From NCBI GenBank assembly GCA_049679185.1, contig JBAUFO010000083.1, forward strand, positions 25,958 to 89,957: a DNA stretch of 64,000 nt, in the 5' to 3' direction. The notes beneath the pieces are model-generated. The model ran no database searches, had not been told where the DNA came from, and saw nothing but the letters and a program-made list of their open reading frames with translations. Positions 2,780 through 44,000 of this stretch are shown in pieces (the stretch's first letter is position 1; every line of letters begins with the position of its first letter). This DNA is from Candidatus Zixiibacteriota bacterium. GTDB taxonomy: Bacteria; Zixibacteria; MSB-5A5; SM1-73. The translations under genes and the position numbers were made by a program.

Positions 2780-3961
2780 CTAAATGACGCCCATCTTCTT
2801 GCCCACCCTTTCAAAGACCTTCAGGACCCTGTCCAGCTGCTCATCGGTATGTGTGGCAGTGTAGCTGGTGCGGAGGAGTTGGGAACCGGGAGCGACGGCG
2901 GGGCTGATTATGGGGTTGACGAATATGCCTTCATCCGAGAGCATCTTCCAGAATTGGAAGGTCTTCATGTCATCGCCTATGTAGATGGGAATGATGGGGG
3001 TCTGCGTTGGTCCTATGTCAAACCCCAAAGCTTTATACTCCTTGTGCATTCTCCTGGTGATCTCCCAGAGCCTCTCTCTTCTCTCCGGCTCGTTCTCGAT
3101 TATATCCAGAACTGCAAGGCAGGTCGCCACTGCGGCAGGCGGCGGGCTGGCGGAGAATATCAGCGGGCGGGAGAAATGCTGGATGTAATTAATTACCCTT
3201 TCGGTGCCCGCGATGAAGCCGCCCAGCGACGCGAACGATTTGGAGAAGGTGCCCATCACCATGTCCACCTCGTCCTCCACGCCAAAATGCTCTGCGGTGC
3301 CCCGGCCATTCTTACCCAAAACACCGATGGAATGAGCATCATCCACCATCACCCGGGCACAGTGCTTCTTGGCTAACTTCACTATCTCCGGTAGGTTGGC
3401 TATGTCTCCCTCCATGCTGAACACTCCATCCACCGCGATCAATTTTCCCGCGTTGTTTTCGCAGTTGCTCAAGACCCGCCCCAGATCAGACATGTCGTTG
3501 TGCTTGAACTTCACCACGGTTCCGTAAGATAGCCGGCAGGCATCCACTATGCTGGCATGATCCGATCTGTCGATGACGATATAGTCTTTCCGGTTCACCA
3601 GCGTGGCTATGGTTCCCAAATTTGTCTGGAAACCGGTGGAGAAGACCAAGACAGCTTCCTTTTTCATGAACTTGGCCAGTTTCTCCTCCAACTCCTCGTG
3701 GATTTCCAGAGTTCCGTTTAAGAACCTGGATCCGGTGCACCCGGAGCCAAACCTTTCCACCGCTTTAACGGCGGCCTCTTTCACCTTGGGATGCGAGGTT
3801 AAGCCCAGATAGTTGTTGGAACCGATCATGATCATCTGCTTTCCCTCGATGGTCACCTCGGTGTCCTGGCCGGAGGAGATAGCCCGAAAGTACGGGTAGA
3901 CCCCCAGCTTCTTTACCTCATCGGCCTCGGTGAAGCCTTGGCATTTTTCAAACAGGTCCAT
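2780..3961 (-). CDS. PLP-dependent alpha-oxoamine synthase, serine palmitoyltransferase-like (Spt/BioF/Kbl family)
   Basis: 393 aa. PLP-lysine motif [13 protein letters not shown] matches the TFSKS signature of bacterial SPT rather than GTLGKALG (Kbl) or the BioF motif. Contains DDAHSIG and the C-terminal HT-EQLD region. Confidence 0.85.
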
Positions 3962-4063: not shown

Positions 4064-4092
4064 ATCTTAAAGAAATGCCTTCCGATTGTCAA
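4064..4092 (-). promoter_or_regulatory. sigma70-like promoter for the AOS-GNAT-ybjQ transcription unit (-35 TTGACA, 17 nt, -10 TAAGAT on the minus strand)
   Basis: Minus strand reads TTGACA (4092-4087) + 17 nt + TAAGAT (4069-4064), about 100 nt upstream of the AOS start at 3961. Confidence 0.45.
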
Positions 4093-4154: not shown

Positions 4155-5051
4155 CTATTCCTCCTTCTTGTGAACGCTGAGGAGGTCCACTCTGAAATCC
4201 TCCAGGAACTGTGAGATGTTTTCAGCCTGTCTCCCCTGGTAACGTCTCTGAAAGAGTTTGGTCAGAATAGTGGCACCGGACGGAATCTCCTTTGCTGAGA
4301 TACCGCAATAGGTCCCGTTGGAGATGCGGGCGATTTTCATTCCCAGCTTGCTTCCGCCGAAAAGCTGTCCGCTTTTGCTCTTACCGTGGGCGGGATTTAT
4401 CACCAGGATGGGAATCTCTGCTCTTCTGAAATCCTTAGAGATCCTCAGCGTCTCCTGATAGGCAGGCTCCTCCAGGAGATCGGCATACTTGTGGGTCAGC
4501 GGCTCGGGGAAACAATCGCTGATAAGAACGGCGAAGGGTATGAAGTTGGGCGATCTTCTTTTCTCCTGTTTGAACATCTCGACGGCTTTCTTAAGACCAT
4601 CTGCCAGGGGCGTGAAACCGGACGGGGAGAGACGGGCCAAGTTCCCCAGGGTTACCCTCAGATTGTTGGTGGGGTGATTCATGATCTTGGCAGAATTCCT
4701 CTGAAAAGCGATCAAGCCCAAACGATCCCTGTTCCTGTATGCATCGCGATACACTATGGAAAGCGCTTTGGAAACTGCAGGAAGGAAGTGATAGGTCGAG
4801 TAACTGGCATCGGTAATCAGAACCAGGGTGACCGAACTTCTTCCCTGTCTGACCCAGACCCGGAGGTCGGAGGTCTCCAATCTGATTTTGGGCTTAGCTT
4901 CACCTTTTCCACGGGTCACCAAAGCCGCGATTATGCTGGGAAGAATGGCGATGTTCTCTGTGGGAAGGGCTTTTGGTTTCTGAGAGCTGGTAGGCCGTCC
5001 CCGGGTGGAGGTGGTAAGACTTGCTGCCCGCTTACCCACAAACTGCCGCAT
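4155..5051 (-). CDS. von Willebrand factor A (VWA) domain protein, ChlD/BchD C-terminal-like; probably the 3' half of a frameshifted chlD-like gene
   Basis: MIDAS motif DASYS (LVLITDASYS), then GLIAF, GFTPLADGL and AVLISDC beta-strands, a typical VWA fold. The -1 frame upstream of the ATG stays open through the A9 tract at the end of the ChlI-like ORF. Confidence 0.7.
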   Translation of the reverse strand: MRQFVGKRAASLTTSTRGRPTSSQKPKALPTENIAILPSIIAALVTRGKGEAKPKIRLETSDLRVWVRQGRSSVTLVLITDASYSTYHFLPAVSKALSIVYRDAYRNRDRLGLIAFQRNSAKIMNHPTNNLRVTLGNLARLSPSGFTPLADGLKKAVEMFKQEKRRSPNFIPFAVLISDCFPEPLTHKYADLLEEPAYQETLRISKDFRRAEIPILVINPAHGKSKSGQLFGGSKLGMKIARISNGTYCGISAKEIPSGATILTKLFQRRYQGRQAENISQFLEDFRVDLLSVHKKEE

Positions 5052-5203
5052 TTTTCGAGGTGGAGCCTTCTTGGAGAGCTTAAGTTTCCACCGGTCAAAG
5101 TAAGATACCAGCGAACGCAGCGCCTCCTTGGGATTGACCAGCGGAACTCTGGCAACAAGCTGCTTCAGGGAGGGTTTGGGAGAAGATTTTTCGCTTGCAG
5201 GGG

Positions 5204-6346
5204 TTAGGAGTTTTTTTTTACGTCGGCGTCTCCACCGGGCTCAGCCATACCCGTGCCCTTTGGTGCGGAGACTTGAGCGCTGCCCTTTTCCTTCCACATG
5301 TATCCCCATTTTCGGGAGCTCTCCTCAAAGGCATCTTCAATCTCCTCTTGGGTGGGGGGCGGTTCAAGGCCGCCTTCGCGCGTACGGTGGGAGAGCGCCA
5401 GGTGCGAAGACTTCAGTAAGTCTTCCTCCTTGACCGTGGTTCTGCCGTCCAGAGCAGCCGCTGCACAGGCGGTCTTGGTAATCACGATGTCCGGGCGCTG
5501 CCCGTCTACCTTGAGTCGGGCACAAATGGAAGCGGCAATATGGTAAATCTCCTCCCGGACTTCGACCCTGGGAAGGAGAACCTGGGCCTTGGCGATTTTC
5601 CTTTCCAACTTTTCCGCCGCGTCCTTGAACTGATTCTTGAAACCTGGGGGATCCTTTTCAAAAAGAAGGTTGTTTTTGATTATCTGGACTCTGGCTTCCT
5701 CGTCGTTGACCGTTTTGATCAGGCTCGAAAGAGGAAACCGGTCCAGAATCTGCGGGCGAAGCTCCCCCTCCTCCGGATTCATGCTCCCTACAAATACAAA
5801 GCGGGTGGGATGGCTGACGGAAAATCCCTCCCGTTCAATGGTATTCCATCCCAGGGCGGTGGCATCCAGAAGGTCGTCAGTGATGTGATCGGGCAGCAGG
5901 TTGATCTCGTCCACATACAGAATATTCTGATTGGCCTGAGCCAGCAATCCGGGCTGCAAGGCCTTTTCGCCGTCTTTTAAGATTCTCTGCACGTCGATGG
6001 ATCCGATCAACCTGTCCTCGGTAATGCTCAAAGGGAGGTTGATCACTTCCATTCTCAATTCCATTTTGGGAACGTTCTCTCCCTTTTCGAATCTTGATCG
6101 GCAGGATTCGCACCTGTTGGCCGGATCTTGAAAAGAGCATCTGAAAGGGCAGTCGGCGACCACCTCCACCGGCGGCAGGATGTCAGCCAGCGCATAGACC
6201 GCCGTACTTTTGCCCGTACCTTTGGCTCCCCTGATCAGAAGCCCCCCGATTCGCGGATCGACCACATTCAAAAGCAAAGCCAACCTGAGGTCATCCTGCC
6301 CCACGATGGCGCCGAAAGGTAATGTGAGCCTTCCCCGTTTTGACAC
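5204..6346 (-). CDS. Mg-chelatase ChlI/BchI-type AAA+ ATPase with a C-terminal acidic/Pro-rich tail (ChlD-linker-like)
   Basis: Walker A GAKGTGKST, Walker B LYVDEINLL, ChlI-specific Cys-rich insertion CPFRCSFQDPANRCESCRSRF. About half the residues line up with BchI by eye. The C-terminal 55 aa (LEPPPTQEEIEDAFEESS...) resemble the ChlD inter-domain linker. Confidence 0.85.
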   Translation of the reverse strand: MSKRGRLTLPFGAIVGQDDLRLALLLNVVDPRIGGLLIRGAKGTGKSTAVYALADILPPVEVVADCPFRCSFQDPANRCESCRSRFEKGENVPKMELRMEVINLPLSITEDRLIGSIDVQRILKDGEKALQPGLLAQANQNILYVDEINLLPDHITDDLLDATALGWNTIEREGFSVSHPTRFVFVGSMNPEEGELRPQILDRFPLSSLIKTVNDEEARVQIIKNNLLFEKDPPGFKNQFKDAAEKLERKIAKAQVLLPRVEVREEIYHIAASICARLKVDGQRPDIVITKTACAAAALDGRTTVKEEDLLKSSHLALSHRTREGGLEPPPTQEEIEDAFEESSRKWGYMWKEKGSAQVSAPKGTGMAEPGGDADVKKNS

Positions 6347-6393: not shown

Positions 6394-6422
6394 AGTGTAC
6401 AATGTGCTTACATGAAAGTCAA
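6394..6422 (-). promoter_or_regulatory. candidate sigma70 promoter for the chlI-like gene (-35 TTGACT, 17 nt, -10 TACACT on the minus strand)
   Basis: Minus strand reads TTGACT (6422-6417) + 17 nt + TACACT (6399-6394), ~50 nt upstream of the start at 6346. Confidence 0.4.
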
Positions 6423-6540: not shown

Positions 6541-7329
6541 CTAACCGCGCATCCTTTGCTTTGCCACCTCGTGGAGAAGGATTCCGCCTGCTACAGCCAC
6601 GTTCAGGGATTCCGCTTTACCGTAAGTTGCGATGCGAATGACATCGTCGCAAAGCTGAAGCAACTCCTTGCCCAGTCCTTCCGCCTCGCTGCCGATTAAA
6701 AGGCAAATTTTCCCGGTCGGATTCAACCTCTCAATCTTGCGCCCCCTCCTGACATCCGTGCCGAGAATCTTGAATTTTCGTTTTTTCAACTGGGGAATCG
6801 CCTTCTCCAGGTCAACTTCATCGAAGACCGGCAGGTGAAAGACAGAACCCATGCTGGAGCGCACCACCTTGGGATTGTATAGCTCCACCGTCTCGCCTGA
6901 CAAAATCACTGCATCTATCCCCAATGCGTCCGCGGTTCTTATCAGCGTGCCCACGTTCCCCGGATCTCCGATGCCGTCCAAAGCCACAATCACTCTCAGG
7001 TTCCATTCCCACAAATCCTTCAGAGTGAGGCTCTTTGTTTTTGCGACAAAGACTATTCCCTGAGCGGTCACGGTATCCGAAAGCTTACCTAAAACCTGGC
7101 TTTTCACAGGTATCAGCTCAGTATTTCTCTTTTGCAGTTTTCTTAAGAGCCGTTTACCTCTGGGTTTCTGTTCAAAGGACCTGGTGAAGAGAACCGACTC
7201 GATGGGCCAGGAGGAGTCCGTTGCCTCCTCGCAAAGACGCAACCCCTCTATCAAGAATCTTCGCTGCTGGCTGCGGCCTTTCTTCGTCTTGAGCTTCGAG
7301 AACTCTGTGAGCCGTCGCTTTGAAAGCAT
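6541..7329 (-). CDS. TrmH/SpoU-family RNA 2'-O-methyltransferase (RlmB-like)
   Basis: LDGIGDPGNVGTLIRTADALGIDAVIL ... LLIGSEAEGL ... ESLNVAVAGGILLHE, the SPOUT knot motifs. Confidence 0.85.
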   Translation of the reverse strand: MLSKRRLTEFSKLKTKKGRSQQRRFLIEGLRLCEEATDSSWPIESVLFTRSFEQKPRGKRLLRKLQKRNTELIPVKSQVLGKLSDTVTAQGIVFVAKTKSLTLKDLWEWNLRVIVALDGIGDPGNVGTLIRTADALGIDAVILSGETVELYNPKVVRSSMGSVFHLPVFDEVDLEKAIPQLKKRKFKILGTDVRRGRKIERLNPTGKICLLIGSEAEGLGKELLQLCDDVIRIATYGKAESLNVAVAGGILLHEVAKQRMRG

Positions 7330-9072: not shown

Positions 9073-9720
9073 ATGATCGACCTGCATACTCATACCACCC
9101 TGAGTGACGGAGCCCTAATCCCGGCGGAATTAGTGAGGAGAGCGGAGATTGCAGGATATAAAGCCATTGCCATCACGGATCACGTCGACTCGGGAAACAT
9201 GGAGACTATTCTGAAACAGGTGATCAAGGTGGCAGAGGATTTCAACCGTCAGGGTCAACTTAAAGTTCTGCCCGGCGTCGAAATAACTCATATGCCGCCT
9301 CCTTTGATTCCGGACATGGCCAACGCGGCAAGAAAATTGGGAGCAAAGATTGTTGTGGTTCACGGGGAGTCGCCGGTTGAGCCGGTATGCCCGCAAACCA
9401 ACTTCGTTGGTCTGCGGAGCGATATCGACATCCTGGCTCATCCCGGAATGATCACGGAAGAAGAGGTAAAACTGGCAAAGGAGAGGGGAATCTACCTGGA
9501 GCTGTCGGCTCGGAAAGGGCACTGCCTGGCTAACGGCCGGTTAGTTGTGCTGGCAAGAAAATTCCAGGCTAAGCTGGTTATCAACACCGACGCGCATACC
9601 CCTGGAGAGCTTTTTTCCAAAGGTCTCTTGAAAAAGGTCGGCTTGGGGGCGGGATTGACCGAACACGAGTTGGAAGAGGTGTTTCAGAATTCTGCGGAAC
9701 TGGTGAAAAAAAGATTCTGA
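9073..9720 (+). CDS. PHP-domain (polymerase/histidinol-phosphatase-like) phosphoesterase
   Basis: N-terminal MIDLHTHTTLSDGA and an internal ITDH motif, the PHP metal-binding signature. Confidence 0.85.
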   Translation: MIDLHTHTTLSDGALIPAELVRRAEIAGYKAIAITDHVDSGNMETILKQVIKVAEDFNRQGQLKVLPGVEITHMPPPLIPDMANAARKLGAKIVVVHGESPVEPVCPQTNFVGLRSDIDILAHPGMITEEEVKLAKERGIYLELSARKGHCLANGRLVVLARKFQAKLVINTDAHTPGELFSKGLLKKVGLGAGLTEHELEEVFQNSAELVKKRF

Positions 9721-10989: not shown

Positions 10990-13900
10990 TTGAAGAAAGA
11001 AGAGATTTTCTCTAAGATGAAAAAGAGATTCAAATTTCCCCTTTACTTCGTTTCCTTCGTGCTCTTTGCCTGCCTGCTTTTCTGGGGACTTCTAAACCAA
11101 ACCCAGTTGGTGGAGAATCAGGTCAACCGGGCATTGAGGATTCTCGTCCAGAGCAAGTATGCGCTCAAGGTGAACGTTGGGGATATCAGAGGTGTATTCT
11201 GGCGTGAGCTTGTGATTACGGGTGTAACCGTTGATTTCATCGATGAAACCACCAGCTACAGGATTGCTGACATTCCTTTCCTCAAGGTGAATTACAGGCT
11301 GGCCAATCTGTGGAGAAAGAAGTGGATCCTGGATTCTTTGACCATTGAGCATCCCAGATTCGTGCTGAGAAAGACGGAGGAAGGCAAATTGCTGGTGACG
11401 GTTCCTCGATCCGAAAGAAAAGCCATATCCAAGACGGGGTTATTTGACTTCAAGATTGGAAACCTGAGAATTGAAAAAGGCAGCCTTGAATATCTCTCTC
11501 CTGAGAAACAGTCCAGCATAGATAGCCTGAGCGTTGAGCTTTCCCTGAGCAAAGATGCTGATGGAATCAAGCTCAACTTACACCGAGGCGGTCTGGAGTA
11601 TCCAGAGAAGGACTTCGTCCTACGGAACATAGAAGGCTTTTTCTGGCTGATGAAAGACACCCTGGCCATCGAAGGGCTGAGAATCAAAACAGAAGACTCG
11701 GACGTGGAGATCTCAGGAAACGTGGCTAATCTCAAAGAACCGGAGTTCTTCTTTGCAGTCAAAGCACGACCGGTAGACCTGGAGAACCTCAGGAAGTTTA
11801 CCGGCGTGCGGTTATCAGGAGTGCTGGAGCTGGATGGGACCTGCGAGGGGAATCTCAAAAGATTCGGAGGGCAGGCGACCTTGAACGGTCTGTTTTTCGA
11901 AAGGAGATTCGAACCGATAAGGACCGAGTATTCCTATCATAACAGAAAGTTGACCTTCTCGTACATAAGCGGTCGGGCCTTCGGTTCCCCTGTAAGCGGA
12001 AAGGGGATGTTCGACTTCAGCATAGTACCTGAGGAGTATGAATTCGAGGGAAAGGTTCAAAATCTTGATCTGAACAACATCGCCTTCGGAAGCATCGTCA
12101 CCGCTCTTTCCGGCGAGATTCACATGCGGGGGAGATCCACTTCAGAAGAGGAATTGTTCATGCAGATGGAGGTGAATCTGCAGGAGGGAAGAATCGAGCA
12201 CTACAGCTTCAACCAGGCCGAAGGAATCATCGACGTCACCTCCGACTCGGTGGCTTTTCATCCGCGGTTTCAGTTCCGCTACAAGAACACCGGAATAGCC
12301 TTGACCGGGAAACTGGAGTACGACGGAGAGATCGACATAGATGCCTGGGTCGATTTCAGCGACCTGACGGATTTCCGGGAGCAGATATTCATAAAGGAGA
12401 TGAGAGGGAGGGGAAAGGCTTTCGTTAACTTGGGCGGAAAGACGGAGGATTTCAATATCAAAGGAGAGTTTACGTCCGACTCATGCTACGCTTATGAGCT
12501 TTTCAGTTCAGATGCAAGAATCAAACTCGATATAGCCAACTTCTTGAGCAAACAGAAAGGACAGGTCGACGTTCGTTTTCTGGACGGGGAGGCCTGGGGC
12601 GTGAGATATGACAGCCTGGTCTCCCGATTGAAGGTCGACGATGAATGGATCAAGATAGACACGGCCCGTCTGGAAAGCCAACACCTTGCCCTGAATTTCT
12701 GGGGTGAGTTGGACGTCTCCAAAGTTCCTCAAACTCTGTTGATCTACGAGATACTTTTGGATTATCAGGGGAATCTCCTAAATTCCTCCTCACCCACGGT
12801 GGTGAACATTGACACCCAGGAGGTCCGGATAACGAAGTGCATCCTTTCAGGGGAGACCGGAAAGATCGACGTGTCAGGTATCATCGACTACGAGGAGAAT
12901 ATGGATATTTCTTTAGAGGTATCCGGGTTGGACGTCGCTCCCTGGGCAGCACTTCTTACGTCGGAACCTATTGAAGGGAGGCTCTCCGTTCAAACCATAC
13001 TCCAGGGGAATTTTGAGAGCCCGCAAATTGAGCTAAACGGAGAAATCGAACGACTGAAATTCAAAGGCATGGAGTTGGGAGATCTGAAAACGAATATTTC
13101 ATACAAGGATAAGAAAATAGAGATCAGAGACCTTGCGGTAACCGACCCGGACTGGCGATATACCCTGAAGGGATTCCTGCCTCTGGATTTGTCATTTACC
13201 TCGGTAGAGGAGAGGATTCTGGTGGAATCCCAGGATCTCACCCTTTCAGCGAAAGGAAAGCGGCTGGAGTTGATTAAGCTGTTTATCCCGATGATCGAAT
13301 ATCTGAGAGGCGACTTTGCGGGTGACTTAGAGATTGCCGGAAGCCTGCTTCATCCACGATTCGACGGGCAGATGACCGTAAAAGAGGGGAGCTTGAAGTT
13401 CGCTGAGCTGGCCGATCCGGTGGAAGACCTGCTGGTGGAGATGAGGATGAAGGATGAGAATCTCATACTGGACAGAGTAGGCGGTTCCATGAAGAGCGGG
13501 AGGGGTCGCAAGGGCGGATTCTTCGCCAGGCTGTGGAGAATCTTCTCGCCGGGCCAGCAAATCGAAGGGGAGCTCACGGGCTTCGGAACCATCGACCTGA
13601 AAGACATACAGAGCATAGAGTACAGCTTATACTTCTCCGGAGAGAGGATTCCCATCGATTACGAGTATGCCGATCTTTCCGCGCTAGCTGATCTGACCGT
13701 GGAGATATCGGGTAGGTCCCCGCCCCTGGTTTCCTCCGAGATTTTTCTCTCCGAGTTCTTCTACCGGGAGTCTTTCACGTCGTCCGGTTCCGGGACCTTC
13801 GTCACCGCCAGTCACCAGGAGACCGACCTGTGGGACTGGAATCTGGACGTGTCTGTCGCCAACAACTGCTGGATCATGAACGACGACGTGAATCTGGAAT

Positions 13901-14610
13901 TCAGCGGCGATGTGCGGGTGCTGCGGGAGGGGGGCGAGCTCAGGATCCTGGGTGACATGGAGATCATCAGGGGAAAGTACTTCCTCTACGGAACCAAGTT
14001 CAAGATTGAAAAAGGATCGTTCTTCTTTGACAACGTGGAGAGGATCGACCCCAAGATCGATTTTCTGGTCTCCACCAGGCTATGGGGAGCAACTCCCGGG
14101 TCTTCCGGTGGCGGGACCCTTTTGGGCACGGGGTCGAGCAACGAGATCAAGTTAGCTATCGGTGGCACCCTTTCGGAGCCGGAGGTCGAGCCGGCACCTG
14201 GCTCACCATATGCCAAGGATGACATTCTGGAACTTCTGGCTTTTCAGCAGGGCATGGGCTCCGTCGATTCGGTGGGAGTGGGGAGCTTGTTCCAGGAGAG
14301 GGTAATCAAGAGCCTGGGTGGTGCTTACAGCAGCCGATTCTTAGAGAGCATCGCCGGCAGGACCCTGGGGGTGGAGACATTCGAGATAGTTCCCACCTGG
14401 AGCGAGAAGTTCCGGCTTACCGATGCTCAGATTACCATTGGCAAATACGTCTCGGACAAGGTCTATCTGCGTTACACCCGCCGCCTCTCCCAGTCCAGCG
14501 GGCAGGAAACAGGTGTGGAATACAGGTTGAATAAACACCTTTTTTTTGAAGGACGCAAGGACAAAGCGGGGCTTTTCCATCTGGGTCTAAATCTCAATTG
14601 GGAATATTGA
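10990..14610 (+). CDS. tamB: TamB/AsmA-like translocation and assembly module protein (DUF490-type C-terminus)
   Basis: 1206 aa, N-terminal signal-anchor helix, long beta-rich repetitive body, C-terminal ...LNLNWEY like the TamB DUF490 tail. Immediately followed by an Omp85 gene. Confidence 0.7.
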   Translation: MKKEEIFSKMKKRFKFPLYFVSFVLFACLLFWGLLNQTQLVENQVNRALRILVQSKYALKVNVGDIRGVFWRELVITGVTVDFIDETTSYRIADIPFLKVNYRLANLWRKKWILDSLTIEHPRFVLRKTEEGKLLVTVPRSERKAISKTGLFDFKIGNLRIEKGSLEYLSPEKQSSIDSLSVELSLSKDADGIKLNLHRGGLEYPEKDFVLRNIEGFFWLMKDTLAIEGLRIKTEDSDVEISGNVANLKEPEFFFAVKARPVDLENLRKFTGVRLSGVLELDGTCEGNLKRFGGQATLNGLFFERRFEPIRTEYSYHNRKLTFSYISGRAFGSPVSGKGMFDFSIVPEEYEFEGKVQNLDLNNIAFGSIVTALSGEIHMRGRSTSEEELFMQMEVNLQEGRIEHYSFNQAEGIIDVTSDSVAFHPRFQFRYKNTGIALTGKLEYDGEIDIDAWVDFSDLTDFREQIFIKEMRGRGKAFVNLGGKTEDFNIKGEFTSDSCYAYELFSSDARIKLDIANFLSKQKGQVDVRFLDGEAWGVRYDSLVSRLKVDDEWIKIDTARLESQHLALNFWGELDVSKVPQTLLIYEILLDYQGNLLNSSSPTVVNIDTQEVRITKCILSGETGKIDVSGIIDYEENMDISLEVSGLDVAPWAALLTSEPIEGRLSVQTILQGNFESPQIELNGEIERLKFKGMELGDLKTNISYKDKKIEIRDLAVTDPDWRYTLKGFLPLDLSFTSVEERILVESQDLTLSAKGKRLELIKLFIPMIEYLRGDFAGDLEIAGSLLHPRFDGQMTVKEGSLKFAELADPVEDLLVEMRMKDENLILDRVGGSMKSGRGRKGGFFARLWRIFSPGQQIEGELTGFGTIDLKDIQSIEYSLYFSGERIPIDYEYADLSALADLTVEISGRSPPLVSSEIFLSEFFYRESFTSSGSGTFVTASHQETDLWDWNLDVSVANNCWIMNDDVNLEFSGDVRVLREGGELRILGDMEIIRGKYFLYGTKFKIEKGSFFFDNVERIDPKIDFLVSTRLWGATPGSSGGGTLLGTGSSNEIKLAIGGTLSEPEVEPAPGSPYAKDDILELLAFQQGMGSVDSVGVGSLFQERVIKSLGGAYSSRFLESIAGRTLGVETFEIVPTWSEKFRLTDAQITIGKYVSDKVYLRYTRRLSQSSGQETGVEYRLNKHLFFEGRKDKAGLFHLGLNLNWEY

Positions 14611-14731
14611 AGAGAGCAGCTTTTTTGCATTGGAGTAATGGTTCAAATATCGGACTTCATGATCTGAAGAGCCTTATGCTAGCCCTGAGCAACACGGAGT
14701 TTGAAGCCGGTTTTGAAAAGAAGACACGACA

Positions 14732-16618
14732 ATGGTCAACAACCTCAGTAACAAATATCCAAATGTCCTGCTGATCTTTGTGGCAGTTCTTTTCCTCACT
14801 GCAACCGCTCAGGCGGGCAATCGGAATAAACCGATCATTGAGGAGATTGCCATAGAAGGGAACACTTATTTCTCCGACGGGAAGATAAAGGATCAAATGG
14901 GCCTGAAGAAAAACAGGTGGTATACCCTCTTCAAGAAAAGAAGGTTCAGCTTGAAAAAGGCAGAGTTGGACCAGGCGTCGATCGATTCTCTATATCACGT
15001 CAACGGATTCCTGGAGGCGGAAAGCGAGATCGGCGCAGAGGAGAAAAAGAAAAACAGTTGTGTAGTCAAGGTGACCATCAAAGAGGGATATCAAACCAGG
15101 CTGGGAAAAGTCATCCTGAAGGGTGGACTGCCCCAGTTTGAGGAAAAGACAAGAAAAGAGATGAAACCGTTGAGAGGCGGCGAACCCTTTAACTGGACGA
15201 AGCTGTACGACGTGCGTTTTAACATCGGAACGATCTATGCCAACAAAGGTTATCCTTATGCTGACGTTCAAATCCTGGTGTCGGCAGGGGAAAATAGGTA
15301 CATGCCGGACGTCACCCTGCAAGTGAACCCGCGGAAGAAGGTCTTCTTCGGCAAGGTCACCTATGAAGGGCTGAAGCTTACCAGGGGGAATGTGGCACGG
15401 AGGGAGTTGACCATGAAGGAGGGGGAGATCTATTCCCGGGAGAAGATCGTGGACAGCCGGCAGAGGGTTTACTCCACCGGGCTTTTCAGCTACATAACCC
15501 TCAAAACCAAGGACGTGGAGCAGAAACCGGACAAACCGGATTTCGTCCTGAGAGTGGTGGAGAAGAAGCCGTATTACGTCGGTGGTAAGGTGGAGCTGGC
15601 GCATCAGCCCCAGTCAGCAAACCAGCACGAATACCTCACCGTGGATTTCACCGGAGAGTGGGGAAACCGCAACATTGCCGGCACCTCCCGAAAAATCGGA
15701 CTGGCCGCTTATTACAGCTACAAGATCGAGCGCAAGGTGGAAAGGTTGTCGAATCGATTCACCTGTAGGTACGTACAGCCCTGGATTCTCGGAACCAGGA
15801 CGGTTCTGGACCTGGACGTGTATTATGAGCCAGGGGTACAAAGCGTGGTTCAGAAATACCGCATCGAGTCGTATGGCGGAAACATGAACTTCAGCCGGGA
15901 GTTCACCAGATATACCAAGGCTTGGCTCACCGCCAGTTATCAGCAGGTACATATCTACAGCATTCCTCCGGCGGAGTTGGAGACTTACAAAGAGGAGCAG
16001 GGGATAAGCATTCGAAGGAAGATAATCTTCTCCGGAGAGAAGGATTCACGAAGCAACATATTCATTCCTTTGGACGGATCCTTCACTCAAGTTTACGCGG
16101 AGTTGGTGGGAGGATTCCTGGGGGGGGATAACCATTTCTTCAAGACGAGATTCTCCTGGGCCAGGTACAATAATCTTAGCAGGAGGAAGAAGCTGAACGT
16201 TTTGGCCACCAGAATAAAACTTGGCTATGCGGATGGGCTTTCTCGCTTGGATATGGTTCCCAGCTTTGACCGGTTTTACATGGGGGGAGCCTCGACCATG
16301 AGAGGATTCAAGGAAAACAGCATGGGTCCGACAGATATGGGAGGTGGCCCAAGAGGAGGGAAGGTGATGGTGGTGGGGAATATTGAATATCGGAGAGCAC
16401 TGTTCTGGAAATTCGGCTGCACCATCTTCGTTGACGCAGGGAACCTGTGGGAAAAGCCGAAACATGTAAACGGAAGGGATTTCAAGGTCAGCTCCGGCGT
16501 GGGAATTCAGTTCTTCACCCCGGTGGGACCGCTGCGGCTGGATTACGGAAGGCAACTTCCCATCAAAGAGAGCCCCGAAACGGGTCGATTTCACCTGAGC
16601 ATCCTCTATGCCTTCTAG
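14732..16618 (+). CDS. Omp85-family outer-membrane protein (BamA/TamA-like; POTRA domains + beta-barrel)
   Basis: 628 aa, signal peptide, POTRA-like repeats, C-terminal barrel ending in aromatic ...LSILYAF. Pairs with upstream tamB, so likely TamA. Confidence 0.85.
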   Translation: MVNNLSNKYPNVLLIFVAVLFLTATAQAGNRNKPIIEEIAIEGNTYFSDGKIKDQMGLKKNRWYTLFKKRRFSLKKAELDQASIDSLYHVNGFLEAESEIGAEEKKKNSCVVKVTIKEGYQTRLGKVILKGGLPQFEEKTRKEMKPLRGGEPFNWTKLYDVRFNIGTIYANKGYPYADVQILVSAGENRYMPDVTLQVNPRKKVFFGKVTYEGLKLTRGNVARRELTMKEGEIYSREKIVDSRQRVYSTGLFSYITLKTKDVEQKPDKPDFVLRVVEKKPYYVGGKVELAHQPQSANQHEYLTVDFTGEWGNRNIAGTSRKIGLAAYYSYKIERKVERLSNRFTCRYVQPWILGTRTVLDLDVYYEPGVQSVVQKYRIESYGGNMNFSREFTRYTKAWLTASYQQVHIYSIPPAELETYKEEQGISIRRKIIFSGEKDSRSNIFIPLDGSFTQVYAELVGGFLGGDNHFFKTRFSWARYNNLSRRKKLNVLATRIKLGYADGLSRLDMVPSFDRFYMGGASTMRGFKENSMGPTDMGGGPRGGKVMVVGNIEYRRALFWKFGCTIFVDAGNLWEKPKHVNGRDFKVSSGVGIQFFTPVGPLRLDYGRQLPIKESPETGRFHLSILYAF

Positions 16619-18315: not shown

Positions 18316-20484
18316 CTACCGCTGATCCCTCAAACTCCTCAGAGTCTCCCTTACCTTTTTGGTTTTACCGGAATCAGCGGAGAATTGCAGAAACTGTTCT
18401 AATATTCGTATGGCGCTTTCCTTTAAGCCCTTTTTATGGTAAATCTCGGCCAAAAGAAGGTAGGCATAATCAGAATCCGGCTTGAGTTTGATCACTTTTT
18501 GATATTCCGCTTCTGCTTCGTCCAGACGATTAAGTGCAAAGCACACGTCTCCCAAGCGTGAATGCGCCTCCACGAAATCCTCCTGTATCTCGATTGCCTT
18601 TCTGAAATACTTGGTCGCCTTCTCGTACTCCCTTCGGAGAGCGTATATTTTCCCCAAATCGGTAAACACCATGGGATCTTTCACATCCAACTTCAGGACC
18701 TTTTCATAATGCCTGATCGCGTTTTTCCATTTTCCTCCAGACGCATAAATCTTTGCCAAATCAGTGTGCGCTTTTACATATTCGGGCTTCAGCCTAATGG
18801 TCTCTTGGTATTCTTGCTCGGCTAAGTCCAAAACACCCTGCCGGTAATACGTCCTCGCCAAGAAGAAATGCACGTCTGGAAAGAGAGGGTCTTGTTGAAT
18901 GGCTTTTTGAAAAGCTCTCAGTGCGTCAGCAAGTCTTCCCCGGTTATAGTATTCTATCCCCTCCTCCAAAAGGACAACCTCCGGATATATTTCTCTTTGT
19001 TTCTGGTTTTCTTTCTCCGCCTCCTGGATCATCCCTTTTTCGGTCAAGTATCGAGCTAGGAAGAAGTGGCCGGAGCGGCTCCTCTTGGGGTCCAAATCCA
19101 TCACGTCTCGAAATCTCTGAATGGATTTGCCCTCGGAAACATTCAAAGCCACCCAGGGAAGAGTTGAGAAAAAGGAGACTGCCACCATAATTGTGGCAAC
19201 GTATTTGAAGGCGGCGAGACCTCGGTTCAGCTTTAGGAAGAGTAGCAGAGCCAGTATGGTGTATCCCAGTGACAATGTAGAAAAAAGATCCCAATCACGA
19301 GGGGCTGCCAAGGCAGGGTCGATTACGAAGTGAAAAAAGAGCTGGAATCCGGTTACCAGAAGAAGAAAGCGAACAGCAGGGTTCTTGAAGTAGGACTTCC
19401 TCCCGACGGTCGCAAGGACAGCAAGAACCAAAGCGAGACCCACCGGCGAAAGCAATAGATGCTGATTTAAGAGGTCCAGTAGGTGAGCCCAGGAGAAAGA
19501 AGTGTACCCGGGGGCAAATCTATGTTCGACGGGCAACACAAAGATACGAATCAATCCGGGCTTGCTCTCAAACACGTGGAACAAAAACAGAATCCCCGCA
19601 AGCAATAGAGCCAGCTCCAACCCCCAGATCACCTTCCTGTTTACTCGGCTCCTTTTCTTCAGCAGGAGCAGGTAAGCCAGTGAAGGCAGAAGATAAAAGC
19701 TGGCGAAGTGAAAAGCCACCGCTATCACGAACGGCAAGAGGACCAGAAAGAGGCTCCCCCCTTCCTCAATCCATTTTAGGGATAGGACCAGGTAGGCGAA
19801 AACGGAGAGATAGGCAAAAGAATAGTGCTCCGCGGACCCAAAGTAGAGCTGAACGCTTCCCATAGTCAACAGAATGGAAAATACAAAGACCTTCTCGAAC
19901 AGATCCTTTCCCAGGTACTCTGAAAACCAAAACACGAAGAAGACAAAGATCCCTCCCGCCGCTACGCTCAGAAGTTGGTATGTTAATTGAGCGTCGGCCG
20001 AGAAAAGGAGATTAAGGAACTTGTGTGTGTTGATATGAAGCGTGACCTCGAGAAATTCGCTCCACGCCCGGATTACCCCGCCCTTATTTAGAGCTGAAAC
20101 CAGGCCGAGTCCATCCCCCCAAAAATACGTTCTGGATCTCAATACCCAAAATAAACCCACAGCCAGGAGACTGAACCCTGCATACCAGACGTACAGTTTG
20201 TTCCCCGAGATCCGTTCGTAAAGAGATGCCAGAGGCTTTCTTGCCATCATCCTCATGCCCCGATTAACCCGGGGGACGAATACCGAAAGAGACAGGACCG
20301 TTAAGACTATCTTGATTGGCAGAGGAAAGTAAGCCAGATGATTGATCCCCCAAACGCGATGATGCGGAAAGAAGCTGGTCAGCAGGTGAGCCAACAGGAT
20401 CACACCACAAATGGTAGCAGCAATCGTCAACGCTGGTGAGGAAACGAGAGAGGTTTCACGCAGAGTTTTCGTTTTTTTCTTCAT
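18316..20484 (-). CDS. polytopic membrane protein (~11 TM) with C-terminal TPR repeats; paralog 1 of a four-member family (GT-C/TMTC-like suspected)
   Basis: 722 aa. N-terminal ~450 aa of hydrophobic helices with conserved motifs RVWGINHLAY, WGDG and PRDWDLFS shared with the 34.7-41.0 kb array; C-terminal ~250 aa of TPR repeats. Confidence 0.8.
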   Translation of the reverse strand: MKKKTKTLRETSLVSSPALTIAATICGVILLAHLLTSFFPHHRVWGINHLAYFPLPIKIVLTVLSLSVFVPRVNRGMRMMARKPLASLYERISGNKLYVWYAGFSLLAVGLFWVLRSRTYFWGDGLGLVSALNKGGVIRAWSEFLEVTLHINTHKFLNLLFSADAQLTYQLLSVAAGGIFVFFVFWFSEYLGKDLFEKVFVFSILLTMGSVQLYFGSAEHYSFAYLSVFAYLVLSLKWIEEGGSLFLVLLPFVIAVAFHFASFYLLPSLAYLLLLKKRSRVNRKVIWGLELALLLAGILFLFHVFESKPGLIRIFVLPVEHRFAPGYTSFSWAHLLDLLNQHLLLSPVGLALVLAVLATVGRKSYFKNPAVRFLLLVTGFQLFFHFVIDPALAAPRDWDLFSTLSLGYTILALLLFLKLNRGLAAFKYVATIMVAVSFFSTLPWVALNVSEGKSIQRFRDVMDLDPKRSRSGHFFLARYLTEKGMIQEAEKENQKQREIYPEVVLLEEGIEYYNRGRLADALRAFQKAIQQDPLFPDVHFFLARTYYRQGVLDLAEQEYQETIRLKPEYVKAHTDLAKIYASGGKWKNAIRHYEKVLKLDVKDPMVFTDLGKIYALRREYEKATKYFRKAIEIQEDFVEAHSRLGDVCFALNRLDEAEAEYQKVIKLKPDSDYAYLLLAEIYHKKGLKESAIRILEQFLQFSADSGKTKKVRETLRSLRDQR

Positions 20485-25275: not shown

Positions 25276-27714
25276 ATGAAATCAAGAAAAGGATTTAAGA
25301 TACTGATCGGCATTGTTGCGGGGGTGATCCTCCTGCTGATTGTGGCTTCTTTCGCGGTGAAGATCATCTTCACCAAGGAGAAGCTGATGTCCATGCTGGT
25401 TCCGAAGATTGAACAGGCGCTCAAAAGACAGGTGAAAATCGACGACGTCACCGTCTCCATCTGGGGAGGCCTGGGCGCGGACGTCAAGGGAATGAGAGTT
25501 CTGAATCCTCCCGGCTTTGTCCACGAGGAGCTCTTCAAGTTCGATCAACTGTCTATCAGAGTGAACTTCTGGCCCCTGCTGCGCAAGAGAATAGAGATCA
25601 AAAAACTCATCCTGGAGAATCCGGAGATAAATCTGGAAAAAGAGAAAAAAGGCGTCTCCAACTTCGGAGATCTGATCGAGAGCAAAGGCGGAGCGATAGT
25701 CATACCATTCTCCTTTGATCAGCTTCAGATAGGAAATGCCAAAATCGTCTACTTAGATAGCCAGACCGGCAAAGAGATAGTTCTGCATCAGTTTGCCCAC
25801 GACGCCAGGCTCGAGCTGGATGACAAGATGGAGAATGCCAGAATAACCGGTGTGATCAAAGTGGAAACCGTCGAGATGAATTTTCCCGACCGCAAGCAGA
25901 CGTTGCCGCCCCTCAGCTTGTCGGTGGAGCATGACATCAACCTCAATATGCCTGGTGATTTCGTTGAGGTGAATGCGCTCAAGATCGGCATCGCCAAGAT
26001 CATCTTAGAGATGAAGGGGAGACTGGATAAAGTGAGCACAGCCCCGGTTTTGAATCTAACCGTTCAATCAGACGGGATCTCTCTGGAGGATGTACTCGCT
26101 TCCCTGCCCAAGGCAGAGTCCTCGCCTCTTACCCAGCTCAAAACGTCCGGGAATATAGCTCTGTGGGCCTCTCTGAAGGGTGATTTCGGAGAGAAGGCTC
26201 CGGTGCAGATTGAGGGAAAGGTCACCCTGCAGAACGGCAGAGTTGACTTTGCCAAAGCACCTAAACCGCTTGATATACCTTACGGCGAGATAAACTTCAA
26301 TAATCGGAGCTTAAGCTTCTTCTCCTCCGACGCAAGGTTGGGCGAAGCCCCGCTGGAGCTTAAGCTGGTGGTGGAGAATTTCGCTGACCCCAGCCTCACC
26401 TCGCAGTTGAAAACCGACTTAAACCTTGCCATCCTGGGCGAACTGGTCACGCTTCCGGAAAAGACCGATCTGGCGGGCCGGGCAGAGATAAACGTCAAAG
26501 CTTACGGTAAGATCAAACAGTCGGAAAAGATGAGTTTTTCCGGGCGAGTCGATCTTAAAAAAGTGGAGGTGGCCACGCCTGCCCTGGGAGTTCCGGTCAG
26601 AAACCTGGATGGCACCATCTCCTTCAAGGAATCGGACGTCGATATTCCCGGGCTGAGTCTCTCCATGGGCAAGTCGTCTCTGAGCCTCAAGGGTAAGGCC
26701 TACGGGGCCATTCCCTATCTGCTTTCTCCCGAGCGGGGGAAACCTCTCCTCAGCTTCAACTTGGATTCCCCGTTCCTGGATCTGGATGAGATCCTTCCGG
26801 TGTCCAAGGAGGATGAGAAGAAGGGAGAGGCCGCCGCAAAAGGCAGCATCCCTTTACCTGACATAAACGCCAGTGGACAAGTCTCCATTCAGAAGCTGAT
26901 TTTCCGCAAGGTTGAACTCACCAATGTCTCCTCCAAAGTGAACCTGGTCGACGGCGTGCTGACATTCGACAACGCTGCCGCCAAGGTTTACTCTGGCTCG
27001 GTAAACGGTAAGGTGACCAGTGACCTTCGGAACATGGATCAGACGGAGTTCGATATGGATCTGAACGCCAGTCAGATCGAAGCCAACGATTTTCTTTCCA
27101 GGTTCACCGGTTTCGACGACCATCTCTTCGGCAAGCTGAACCTTGAGGCGACCTTCTCCGGTAAAGGGAATCGGCTGGAGGATATCCGCAGAACTCTTTC
27201 CGCGAACGGCAGGGCTAACTTCGCGGAGGGAAAATTGATCGGCTGGGCGCTCTTAGACAGCCTGGCTTCTTTTCTGCAGATTAAGGGTTTGAAGGAGCAG
27301 CAGATCAGAACTCTCAAGAATTCCTTCAGAATCGCAGATGCGCGGGTCTGGTTTGACGATCTCAGCGTCTCAACGAAGGACGGGGATTTTAGCCTGGTCG
27401 GGTCCTTGGGGTTGGACGGCTCGCTGGACTACGCCTTGACCGCCGTACTTTCATCGGAGCTCTCCTTGAGATTCGACGCTCTGGGTGATATTTCGGACTA
27501 TCTCAAGAACGAACAGGGAAGAGCGGTCCTTGACCTTAAAATAGGTGGCACCGCAAAGAAGCCAAAATTCTCCCTTGATACTTCCAGGGCGCAGGAAAGG
27601 TTAAAAGCCCAGCTGAAAGGAAAGGCGGAGGAGAAGAAGGAAGAGATACAAAATCAGTTGAAAGAAAAGGCAACTGATCTGCTTGAAGGCCTGCTCAAGA
27701 AGAAGAAGAAATGA
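25276..27714 (+). CDS. AsmA-family protein (N-terminal membrane anchor, large periplasmic beta-rich domain)
   Basis: 812 aa, N-terminal TM, AsmA-like N-domain, Lys-rich C-terminus. Confidence 0.65.
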   Translation: MKSRKGFKILIGIVAGVILLLIVASFAVKIIFTKEKLMSMLVPKIEQALKRQVKIDDVTVSIWGGLGADVKGMRVLNPPGFVHEELFKFDQLSIRVNFWPLLRKRIEIKKLILENPEINLEKEKKGVSNFGDLIESKGGAIVIPFSFDQLQIGNAKIVYLDSQTGKEIVLHQFAHDARLELDDKMENARITGVIKVETVEMNFPDRKQTLPPLSLSVEHDINLNMPGDFVEVNALKIGIAKIILEMKGRLDKVSTAPVLNLTVQSDGISLEDVLASLPKAESSPLTQLKTSGNIALWASLKGDFGEKAPVQIEGKVTLQNGRVDFAKAPKPLDIPYGEINFNNRSLSFFSSDARLGEAPLELKLVVENFADPSLTSQLKTDLNLAILGELVTLPEKTDLAGRAEINVKAYGKIKQSEKMSFSGRVDLKKVEVATPALGVPVRNLDGTISFKESDVDIPGLSLSMGKSSLSLKGKAYGAIPYLLSPERGKPLLSFNLDSPFLDLDEILPVSKEDEKKGEAAAKGSIPLPDINASGQVSIQKLIFRKVELTNVSSKVNLVDGVLTFDNAAAKVYSGSVNGKVTSDLRNMDQTEFDMDLNASQIEANDFLSRFTGFDDHLFGKLNLEATFSGKGNRLEDIRRTLSANGRANFAEGKLIGWALLDSLASFLQIKGLKEQQIRTLKNSFRIADARVWFDDLSVSTKDGDFSLVGSLGLDGSLDYALTAVLSSELSLRFDALGDISDYLKNEQGRAVLDLKIGGTAKKPKFSLDTSRAQERLKAQLKGKAEEKKEEIQNQLKEKATDLLEGLLKKKKK

Positions 27715-33678: not shown

Positions 33679-34776
33679 ATGAAAATCGGTATAGTCGGAC
33701 TTCCATTTGTGGGCAAGACCACGGTTTTTAATGCCTTGACGTGTGGACAGGCCAGAGTGGGCGAATTCTCGCTCGGGGTAAAAGAAGCCAACCGGGGAGT
33801 CGTCAAGGTGCCGGATGAAAGGGTGCATAAACTGGCTACCTTCTATAATCCCAAGAAGGTGACGCCGGCCGAGGTGGAATATATCGACGTTGCCGGGCTG
33901 GTCAAGGAGACCAAGAAAAAAGCTTCGGAGGGAGAATTCTATCATTCCCTAAGGGAGGTCGACGCGCTGGCTCACGTGGTGAGGGTTTTCCAGGATGAAA
34001 ACGTGATTCGCGTCTCCGGCTCGGTGGACTTAAAAAGGGACGTCAAGAACCTGGATCTGGATTTGATCCTGATAGACTTGGACATCGTGGAGAAGAGGCT
34101 GAAGCGCTTGGAAAAGAGCGTGGCCAGCTCCAAGGATGAAGAGGAAAAAAGAGAGCTTCAGGTCCTTCTGAGATTTAAAGAGACCCTGGACCAGGGGATT
34201 CCTCTAAGAGAGATTGAGCTGTCTCCGGGAGAGGAACGGCTAATCCGGGGATATGCCTTTCTCTCTTTGAAGCCCATGCTCATCATACTCAACATAGATG
34301 AGGAGCAAAACGAGCAGAGAGAGCAACTGGAATCGGAATGCTCACAGATGACTAAGGATGAAAAAATCTCCGGCTGCTCTGTTTGCTCCATCTGCGGCAA
34401 GCTGGAGATGGAGCTTTCCCAGCTTGAGGAAGGCGATCGAAGACCCTTCATGGAGGATATGGGCATAAGAGAGCTGGCGATTGAGCGGGTGATTGACGTC
34501 TCCTACAAGCTTCTCAACTTGATCTCGTTTTTCACGGCCAATGAAAACGAGGTCAAGGCCTGGCCGGTTCCTGCGGGAATAAAGGCCATAAAAGCGGCCG
34601 GAACGGTTCACACCGACATGGAGAGAGGCTTCATCAAAGCGGAGGTGATCAGCTTCGACAGGCTGTGGGACTTAGGCTCAGTTCACAAAGTCAAAGAAAA
34701 AGGTGAATTGAGGCTGGAGGGGAAGGAGTATGTGGTTCAGGACGGGGACGTGATCTTTTTCAGATTTAATGTATGA
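33679..34776 (+). CDS. ychF: redox-regulated ATPase YchF (Obg-like GTPase family)
   Basis: MKIGIVGLPFVGKTTVFNALT, central coiled-coil insertion, C-terminal TGS domain (VQDGDVIFFRFN). Confidence 0.9.
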   Translation: MKIGIVGLPFVGKTTVFNALTCGQARVGEFSLGVKEANRGVVKVPDERVHKLATFYNPKKVTPAEVEYIDVAGLVKETKKKASEGEFYHSLREVDALAHVVRVFQDENVIRVSGSVDLKRDVKNLDLDLILIDLDIVEKRLKRLEKSVASSKDEEEKRELQVLLRFKETLDQGIPLREIELSPGEERLIRGYAFLSLKPMLIILNIDEEQNEQREQLESECSQMTKDEKISGCSVCSICGKLEMELSQLEEGDRRPFMEDMGIRELAIERVIDVSYKLLNLISFFTANENEVKAWPVPAGIKAIKAAGTVHTDMERGFIKAEVISFDRLWDLGSVHKVKEKGELRLEGKEYVVQDGDVIFFRFNV

Positions 34777-36749: not shown

Positions 36750-36775
36750 AATGTAATCGTTTGCAGCAAGAATAG

Positions 36776-38779: not shown

Positions 38780-38964
38780 TAATTGCGCAGAGATTGCCTG
38801 CGAAAGAGGCCCAAGCAAAGGCAGAACCGTTTATGCTAATTCAGGCAGTTCTGGAGCAATCAAGAATTCCTGCGGCAGTACGAATACTACATGCCTCTGG
38901 CTACGGATTGGGCGCAGGTAGTGTGGACCATTGACAATACAAGTAAAAGAATGAAGGAACGCTG

Positions 38965-43834: not shown

Positions 43835-44000
43835 CCCTGGTGCATTCTGAAGTGAGACGAGGTACGCGCATATGAGAAAGGATTTGCTTTTTTTGCTTTT
43901 TGTTCTGGTGTGGTCTATTATATTGCCAGGGTATTTTACCTGCAGCGATGGGTCCGGCTCTAAGGAAGAGCCGGGCTTAGAAAAGGAGGGAAGGTTCAAA

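Follow-up and report, generated by a model that had tools for sequence, protein, structure and literature searches.

The window analyzed here is a 64,000-nucleotide (64-kb) stretch of contig JBAUFO010000083.1. It carries two adjacent minus-strand open reading frames (ORFs) which together resemble a single ChlD-like gene (positions 4155–6346). The upstream frame, ORF1 (5204–6346), encodes 380 amino acids (aa) and by standard decoding is a ChlI/BchI-type AAA+ ATPase. It gives 392.8 bits with the TIGR02030 model and displays the Pfam domains AAA_lid_2, AAA_5 and Mg_chelatase, with a Walker A motif GAKGTGKST at 6203–6229 and a Walker B motif LYVDE at 5906–5920. The ORF1 start codon is GTG; a Shine-Dalgarno (SD)-like sequence, AAGAGGAAGGAAAC, is situated just upstream and a promoter-like site is found at 6422–6394. 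The downstream frame, ORF2, as mechanically listed (4155–5051), encodes 298 aa and shows a VWA/integrin-I domain (Pfam VWA_2; TIGR02442 positions 406–622; VWA domain of BchD, PDB 2x31_A) with a metal-ion-dependent adhesion site (MIDAS) motif DASYS, of the DxSxS type, at 4797–4811. ORF2 would form the C-terminal half of a ChlD-like product of about 730 aa.

The two frames meet at a run of nine A residues. The minus-strand 3′ end of ORF1 reads GAC GCC GAC GTA AAA AAA AAC TCC TAA, which gives a protein terminating in VKKNS, with the stop codon at 5206–5204. The A9 run (5219–5211) lies in the sequence GTA AAA AAA AA (5211–5221) and includes an in-phase heptamer A_AAA_AAA; it is at this site that the ORF1 frame would have to pass to the VWA frame. 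The only stretch where both frames are open is about 36 nucleotides (nt) in length (5205–5240) and it holds the A9 run. It is bounded upstream by a TGA of the VWA frame at 5243–5241 and downstream by the ORF1 stop. One added A, or a −1 shift, produces the sequence ...DADVKKK-LLTPASEKSS..., with the junction peptide ...DADVKKKLLTPASE... (also written ...DVKKKLLTPASE), and the frame is then free of stops past the ATG at 5051 down to 4155. An A9 run by itself is unremarkable, as one is observed in the window versus 1.69 expected by chance, although this one is the only A/T run of at least 9 nt present. What is above chance is the placement of the run within the approximately 36-nt overlap of the two frames, together with its conservation in relatives.

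The conceptual fusion is 730 aa in length. Separately, ORF1 covers positions 2–327 and ORF2 positions 406–622 of one fused model, TIGR02442 (641 positions); joined, aa 10–658 of the fusion match profile positions 2–622 in a single stretch with 555.6 bits. In comparisons with known structures, aa 2–341 of the fusion match ChlI 6l8d (345 bits) and aa 507–653 match the BchD VWA domain of 2x31. The closest proteins in a large database are all single fused chains of 736–744 aa, which align end-to-end with the conceptual fusion at 45–48% identity and 98–99% coverage. Walker A, Walker B and MIDAS are all intact, and GAKGTGKST, LYVDE and DASYS sit on invariant columns of the alignment with the fused homologues. 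A sequence-only reading of this DNA had proposed that ORF1 ends as DADVKKNS within a nine-A run, that the −1 frame is open from there into the VWA ORF, that the VWA ORF carries MIDAS at DASYS, and that the resulting protein of about 730 aa has the canonical ChlD/BchD layout. The sequence and the domain models agree with it on each of these points, and the TGA at 5243–5241 is a detail beyond what it had described.

The AAA+ module of ORF1 holds an insertion with four cysteines, CPFRC...CESC, at aa 66–82 (window positions 6101–6151, minus strand). C66, C70, C79 and C82 are invariant when compared with the fused homologues, and the motif is also present in Bathyarchaeota-type relatives. It looks like a small metal-binding knuckle. 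It is not known from Rhodobacter BchI.

Scans of genome and metagenome contigs yielded 14 close relatives of the locus, with 85% to 65% aa identity. Two are from metagenome-assembled genomes (L001 and L002, both labelled 'uncultured Ignavibacteria bacterium') and twelve from metagenome contigs (L003–L014). The sources are JGI metagenome assemblies, SPAdes-named contigs of metagenome-assembled genomes and an NCBI whole-genome shotgun contig. L001 is identical to L004 and L002 to L005, so that with the window included the 15 loci represent 13 distinct sequences. All 13 are split at the same position, where GTA followed by 8 to 10 A residues is found in the ORF1 frame (V-K-K). The run is A9 in nine distinct sequences (11 loci), A10 in L007, L008 and L014, where the next base is also A, and A8 in L003. 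Twelve of the 15 loci have the VWA frame at −1 with respect to ORF1, and in none are the two in frame. In the relatives the stop that closes the VWA frame lies 4–73 nt before the GTA, except in L002, L005 and L003, which require a shift of the +1 type and where the TAA within gTAAaa closes that frame. In these three loci, entry into the VWA frame must thus fall inside the run itself. Comparison of orthologues shows a clade that is uniformly split at one site, and the fused homologues found are more distant.

The codons of the run are also conserved. Both lysine codons, read in the ORF1 frame, are AAA in 13/13 sequences, while elsewhere in these 13 genes lysine is encoded by AAA in 58% and by AAG in 42% of cases. 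The nominal probability of this invariance is 10^-6.5 if the sequences are assumed to be independent, and kinship among the sequences makes that figure overstate the significance. The codons that flank the run vary freely among the relatives.

In the VWA frame, the segment between the A run and the ORF2 ATG encodes KLLTPASEKSSPKPSLKQLVARVPLVNPKEALRSLVSYFDRWKLKLSKKAPPRK (5052–5213, minus strand) and would be translatable only as a continuation of ORF1 after a shift. From the TGA at 5243–5241 down to the ATG at 5051 this frame has no ATG, GTG or TTG. In the relatives, the linker peptide is kept from the first residue past the A run, with the pattern K[LI][LIV]TP.SE.S.PKPSLKQ..ARVPL.NP.... The first conserved potential start is the GTG in FVGKRAAS, which is common to all relatives and lies at 5039 in the window. 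Over the 57 codons that precede it, pairwise substitutions at codon positions 1, 2 and 3 number 134, 66 and 220 in the VWA frame; stops abound in the other two frames. The ORF2 ATG itself (the M of PRKMRQF) is not conserved, and relatives show L, I, V or T in its place. Stray starts occur elsewhere in the linker (a GTG in L001, an ATG in L010), and no start codon in it is conserved across the relatives. ORF1 has both an SD-like sequence and a promoter-like site, whereas neither was found upstream of ORF2. The window linker, RVPLVNPKEALRSLVSYFDRWKLKLSKK, also aligns with the linker of a fused homologue, P0003 (DVPIVSAKKIFQALKEAFDDWKLRFSKK). The stretch between the run and the ORF2 ATG thus evolves as coding sequence in the VWA frame, as judged from the substitution pattern. 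A coding segment under selection that has no start and begins at a conserved A run is predicted by a single recoded gene and not by two independent genes.

More distant members of the family show the opposite configuration. Four fused genes carry an in-frame A run at the homologous linker position. These are L016 (P0018, 43% identity; GAC GTA A10 CAA, 9116–9125), L020 (P0054; GTT A9 GTA, 1947–1955), L021 (P0029; CTA A9 GG, 7125–7133) and L015 (31% identity in the VWA part and 64% G+C; TCG A10 GAC, 2917–2926). In each of these, one A more or fewer leads to termination within 1–15 codons and a ChlI-sized product. Another fused member, P0002 (L018), is without an A run at the linker site. These four are probably further unannotated two-product genes, in a 'dnaX-like' configuration. 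The presence of in-frame A runs at the homologous position in distant fused members argues that the poly-A site predates the split. The site is thus retained in both settings, with either the long or the short protein arising by standard decoding, a situation also known from dnaX.

We consider it likely, from these comparisons, that positions 4155–6346 of the minus strand represent one chlD-like gene with a programmed slip site in the inter-domain linker, giving a short ChlI-like and a long ChlD-like product. Standard decoding, which ends 15 nt beyond the GTA of GTA-A9, would yield the 380-aa ChlI-like AAA+ protein. In a fraction of expression events, the run would be read as one A longer, either by stuttering of RNA polymerase on the T9 template, which would generate A10 transcripts, or by a −1 slip of the ribosome on A_AAA_AAA. 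Translation would then run on via the linker into the VWA/MIDAS domain and produce the ChlD-like protein of about 730 aa. We infer the actual production of two proteins, as well as their ratio and the level of slippage, from the nucleotide sequence.

The in-phase A_AAA_AAA makes a ribosomal −1 frameshift possible, and the 9-nt run is also long enough for slippage by RNA polymerase. Between these routes we lean slightly towards RNA polymerase as the main source, because 7 nt would be enough for a ribosome and the run is longer in every case, conserved stimulators downstream are lacking, and the opposite shift is required in some relatives. The −1 ribosomal slip put forward by the sequence-only reading is consistent with the 12 loci of the −1 type; however, RNA polymerase slippage is also compatible with the sequence, and the three remaining loci need +1/−2. 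A candidate upstream stimulator, the SD-like GGTGGAG located 13 nt before the run, was rejected as the relatives vary at this position (GGTAAAG, GCTGACG, GATAAAG, CTTAAGG). A scan of the whole 64-kb window with Rfam at gathering thresholds gave no family, i.e. no tRNA, rRNA, riboswitch or known frameshift element.

Several observations weigh against a programmed shift or against its reading as a chelatase gene. L002 (with its duplicate L005) and L003, i.e. two distinct sequences and three loci, need +1/−2, which lies outside what a ribosome limited to −1 slips could provide. Their runs (5994–6007 in L002/L005 and 2994–3006 in L003) are one A below the common pattern, with both ORFs otherwise intact; they may reflect genuine variation, 'off' alleles or errors of assembly. 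Because all the sequences share ancestry, the counts given above do not represent independent trials. No conserved RNA structure was found 3′ of the slip site in the 13 sequences (RNAalifold, 0 pairs), and the fold of the window sequence there is no more stable than shuffled sequences (z = 0.07), so that the stimulator classically associated with efficient −1 frameshifting is missing. None of the NCBIfam scores reaches the curated cut-off that marks a bona fide BchI, BchD or cobaltochelatase subunit. ORF1 scores 392.8 bits with TIGR02030 (BchI/ChlI) where the cut-off is 466.95, and the fusion scores 293.4 bits with TIGR02031 (BchD/ChlD; cut-off 499.55) and 555.6 bits with TIGR02442 (CobN-dependent cobaltochelatase ChlID subunit; cut-off 779.45). 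As the curated cut-offs are not reached, the gene is termed ChlI/ChlD-like here and not a chelatase subunit.

Other explanations of the split also have to be considered. Phase variation at the DNA level would have a hypermutable homopolymer switch the gene between a split and a fused (A10) state, with assemblies reporting the majority allele. Tract length does vary among close relatives, e.g. A8 in L003 versus A9 in the nearly identical L001, and L002/L005 look like an A10-type sequence less one A; poly-A is also slippery for DNA polymerase (PMC3711429). Yet no in-frame allele is present among the 13 distinct sequences, and the −1 configuration lasts down to 65% aa identity, which points to long-term maintenance and not to rapid switching. 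With this evidence we regard phase variation as unlikely to a high degree. The gene product, which we take to be cytoplasmic, is also unlike the surface-exposed products usual at contingency loci. If, on the other hand, there are two separate genes, a ChlI-like ORF1 would be followed by a VWA protein that initiates at 5051 (ATG), at 5039 (GTG) or at some non-canonical codon, and the A run would merely encode lysines. Split pairs of ChlI and VWA genes do occur in nature, and every relative has the GTG in FVGKRAAS. But the 57 codons before this GTG, read in the VWA frame, show selection at the amino acid level and share homology with the linker of fused proteins, there is no ATG, GTG or TTG from the upstream stop to 5051 and no start conserved in the relatives, and an SD-like sequence and a promoter-like site precede ORF1 only. 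A need for lysine also leaves the invariant AAA AAA codons unexplained. Two separate genes are thus very improbable.

An error in sequencing or assembly that hides a true A10, or a recent inactivating frameshift that has left a pseudogene, is suggested by the fact that homopolymers are error-prone, that a single A corrects the frame, and that the closest database proteins are fused. However, 12 further distinct sequences of differing origin would all have to share the same 'error', and both halves of the gene are intact, with 65–85% aa identity and no decay. Moreover, in-frame A9 and A10 runs were assembled without trouble in the fused relatives L015, L016, L020 and L021, and thus assemblies handle such runs without a systematic loss of bases. 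Within the window itself, a T8 run (37726–37733) sits mid-way in a 667-aa ORF without breaking it. Each of the other two 8-nt runs is close to the 3′ end of its ORF, and both of these ORFs match their families right up to the end. This explanation is scarcely credible. The sequence-only reading had left a homopolymer error, a phase-variable or pseudogenised gene and a programmed shift side by side; the recurrence of the split in 12 further sequences argues against the first, and the lack of any in-frame allele with two intact halves against the second. The programmed shift giving a ChlI-like and a ChlD-like product is favoured by the comparative evidence, i.e. the split and A run in 13/13 sequences and the coding linker with no conserved start. 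Separate genes with their own ribosome binding sites and starts, and with a stop in the −1 frame, are not what the orthologues display: they are split, but the ORF2 start is not conserved and the −1 frame is open.

Recoding of this kind of gene is not a new idea and was published for 'magnesium chelatase' or chlD genes in 2013, 2020 and 2022. The 'magnesium chelatase' cluster of Antonov et al. (2013) comprises 23 split genes in which the frame changes by −1 at poly-A; they come from Pseudomonas, Burkholderia, Delftia, Herpetosiphon, Methanocaldococcus and Methanococcus (PMC3711429). Each had been annotated as a pair of neighbouring genes of about 1 kb, fused homologues are found elsewhere, and shifting was confirmed in E. 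coli reporters (PMC3711429). In the reporters the shifted product amounted to 10% with 7 As, 40% with A_AAA_AAA_AA (9 As) and 63% with 11 As, where the 9-A cassette came from another species (PMC3711429). The magnesium chelatase class is discussed in the recoding review of Atkins et al. (2016; PMC5009743), and Antonov (2020, Mol Biol Evol, doi 10.1093/molbev/msaa081), according to the summary given in PMC9227772, also covers fs-chlD genes. Kuznetsov et al. (2022) proposed that fs-chlD yields the small and the medium subunit, also in genomes without the large subunit (PMC9227772). The window gene resembles this class in having an AAA+ ORF of about 1 kb followed on the same strand by a VWA ORF of about 1 kb, annotated as two genes that together match one fused ChlD-like protein; in the −1 transition at poly-A in the inter-domain linker; and in the retention of the slip site and split among orthologues. 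It differs in that a downstream structure, which is usual in the class 'together with' slippery sites, was not found here. Such a structure is usual and not obligatory, and the published reporter efficiencies tracked the length of the poly-A. The clade of the window is also Ignavibacteria-like and so lies outside the named groups (the six genera above, Spirochaeta and Anaerolineae), and in two of that clade's distinct sequences the shift would have to be the opposite one. The gene thus shows the defining sequence features of the fs-chlD recoding class, except for the usual downstream structure.

The dnaX gene, which encodes tau and gamma, is also comparable. Expression of E. coli dnaX involves a −1 shift at A_AAA_AAG, that of Thermus thermophilus involves transcriptional slippage at A9, and in Chlorobi-type dnaX recoding at A7–A10 is required for the long tau product (PMC3711429). 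As proposed for the window gene, one AAA+ gene gives a short and a long subunit of one complex by poly-A slippage after the ATPase module, and both configurations are found in nature, with the long product made by standard decoding or only after recoding. The family and complex are unrelated, however, one being a clamp loader and the other a ChlI/ChlD-type motor. The E. coli dnaX shift is stimulated by an upstream SD-like element and a downstream hairpin, whereas no such stimulators are conserved at the window gene.

Transcriptional slippage at A/T runs of 8–10 nt is known in bacterial genes such as the transposases of IS elements (PMC3711429, PMC5009743). The window gene shares with these a homopolymer of at least 9 nt and the absence of a requirement for RNA structure, and both insertion and deletion products are possible, so that transcriptional slippage would accommodate the −1-type, +1-type and in-frame loci alike. 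The Shigella mxiE and spa genes are a further example of transcriptional slippage. For the window gene slippage is predicted, and its run also holds a competent ribosomal heptamer.

With respect to BchI/ChlI, BchD/ChlD and the CobN ChlID-type proteins, the likeness consists of the order AAA+ module, acidic/Pro-rich linker and VWA domain with the MIDAS DxSxS, and ORF1 aligns over the full length of ChlI 6l8d. The differences are the scores under all three curated cut-offs and the absence of a large subunit gene within 64 kb. A tblastn search of the window found no second ChlI-type or VWA gene. No CobN or ChlH is present among its ten largest ORFs, where the sole ORF above 1000 aa is TamB, nor was either found among the ORFs of at least 600 aa in the fetched related loci or adjoining the fused homologues. 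The sequence-only reading, which saw neither a second AAA+ gene (ChlI proper) nor ChlH/CobN, is therefore correct for the 64-kb window. The exact ORF1 protein gave no record in a protein-to-contig index. Because no large subunit gene (CobN/ChlH) is nearby, a function in tetrapyrrole metal chelation is not established. As far as seen within the 64-kb window, the gene fits the 'orphan' ChlI/ChlD situation.

The gene downstream of the chlD-like gene (2780–3961, minus strand) belongs to the BioF/Kbl family and gives 593 bits with the CFB-group serine palmitoyltransferase model NF047600 (cut-off 640). A gene of this family adjoins the chlD-like gene in L001 and L002 as well. The BioF/Kbl-family gene of the window was set aside as a functionally linked neighbour, having its own promoter-like sequence (TTGACA-17-TAAGAT at 4092–4064) and a gap of 193 nt.

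Elsewhere in the window, three tandem plus-strand genes (34773–41019) encode proteins of 658, 667 and 684 aa, each with C-terminal TPR repeats, and apparently constitute a paralogous array; a fourth TPR protein is encoded at 18316–20484 on the minus strand. The TamB-like gene (1206 aa) and, after it, an Omp85/POTRA (TamA/BamA-like) gene occupy 10990–16618 (plus strand), and a separate AsmA-family gene is situated at 25276–27714 (plus strand). These are genes of outer-membrane biogenesis of a diderm bacterium. At 43872–45443 (plus strand), one 523-aa ORF joins a Memo-like and an AMMECR1 domain.

For annotation, the two ORFs are best joined as one recoded chlD-like gene rather than entered as a pseudogene or as a pair of unrelated genes. 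With it, the published fs-chlD recoding class comes to include an Ignavibacteria-like lineage, a modest increment over published work. Within one subfamily, both arrangements retain this poly-A site, which argues that selection acts on the making of two products. The gene also adds to the 'orphan' ChlI/ChlD pairs that have no large subunit nearby; the 'stage 1' organisms Spirochaeta thermophila and Brevefilum fermentans have fs-chlD but no CobN/ChlH and no B12 or chlorophyll pathway, and what fs-chlD does there is, according to the authors, not known (PMC9227772). As a tentative extension, less probable than the recoding itself, the slip may occur mainly by RNA polymerase, with A9 giving rise to A10, A8 or A11 transcripts, and the products may form a ChlI/ChlD-like motor that operates without CobN/ChlH on a client other than a tetrapyrrole chelatase. 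If this is true, polymerase slippage would let the −1, +1 and in-frame relatives all make both proteins, and a non-chelatase client in these Ignavibacteria-like anaerobes would provide a handle on the ancestral function of the ChlID module.

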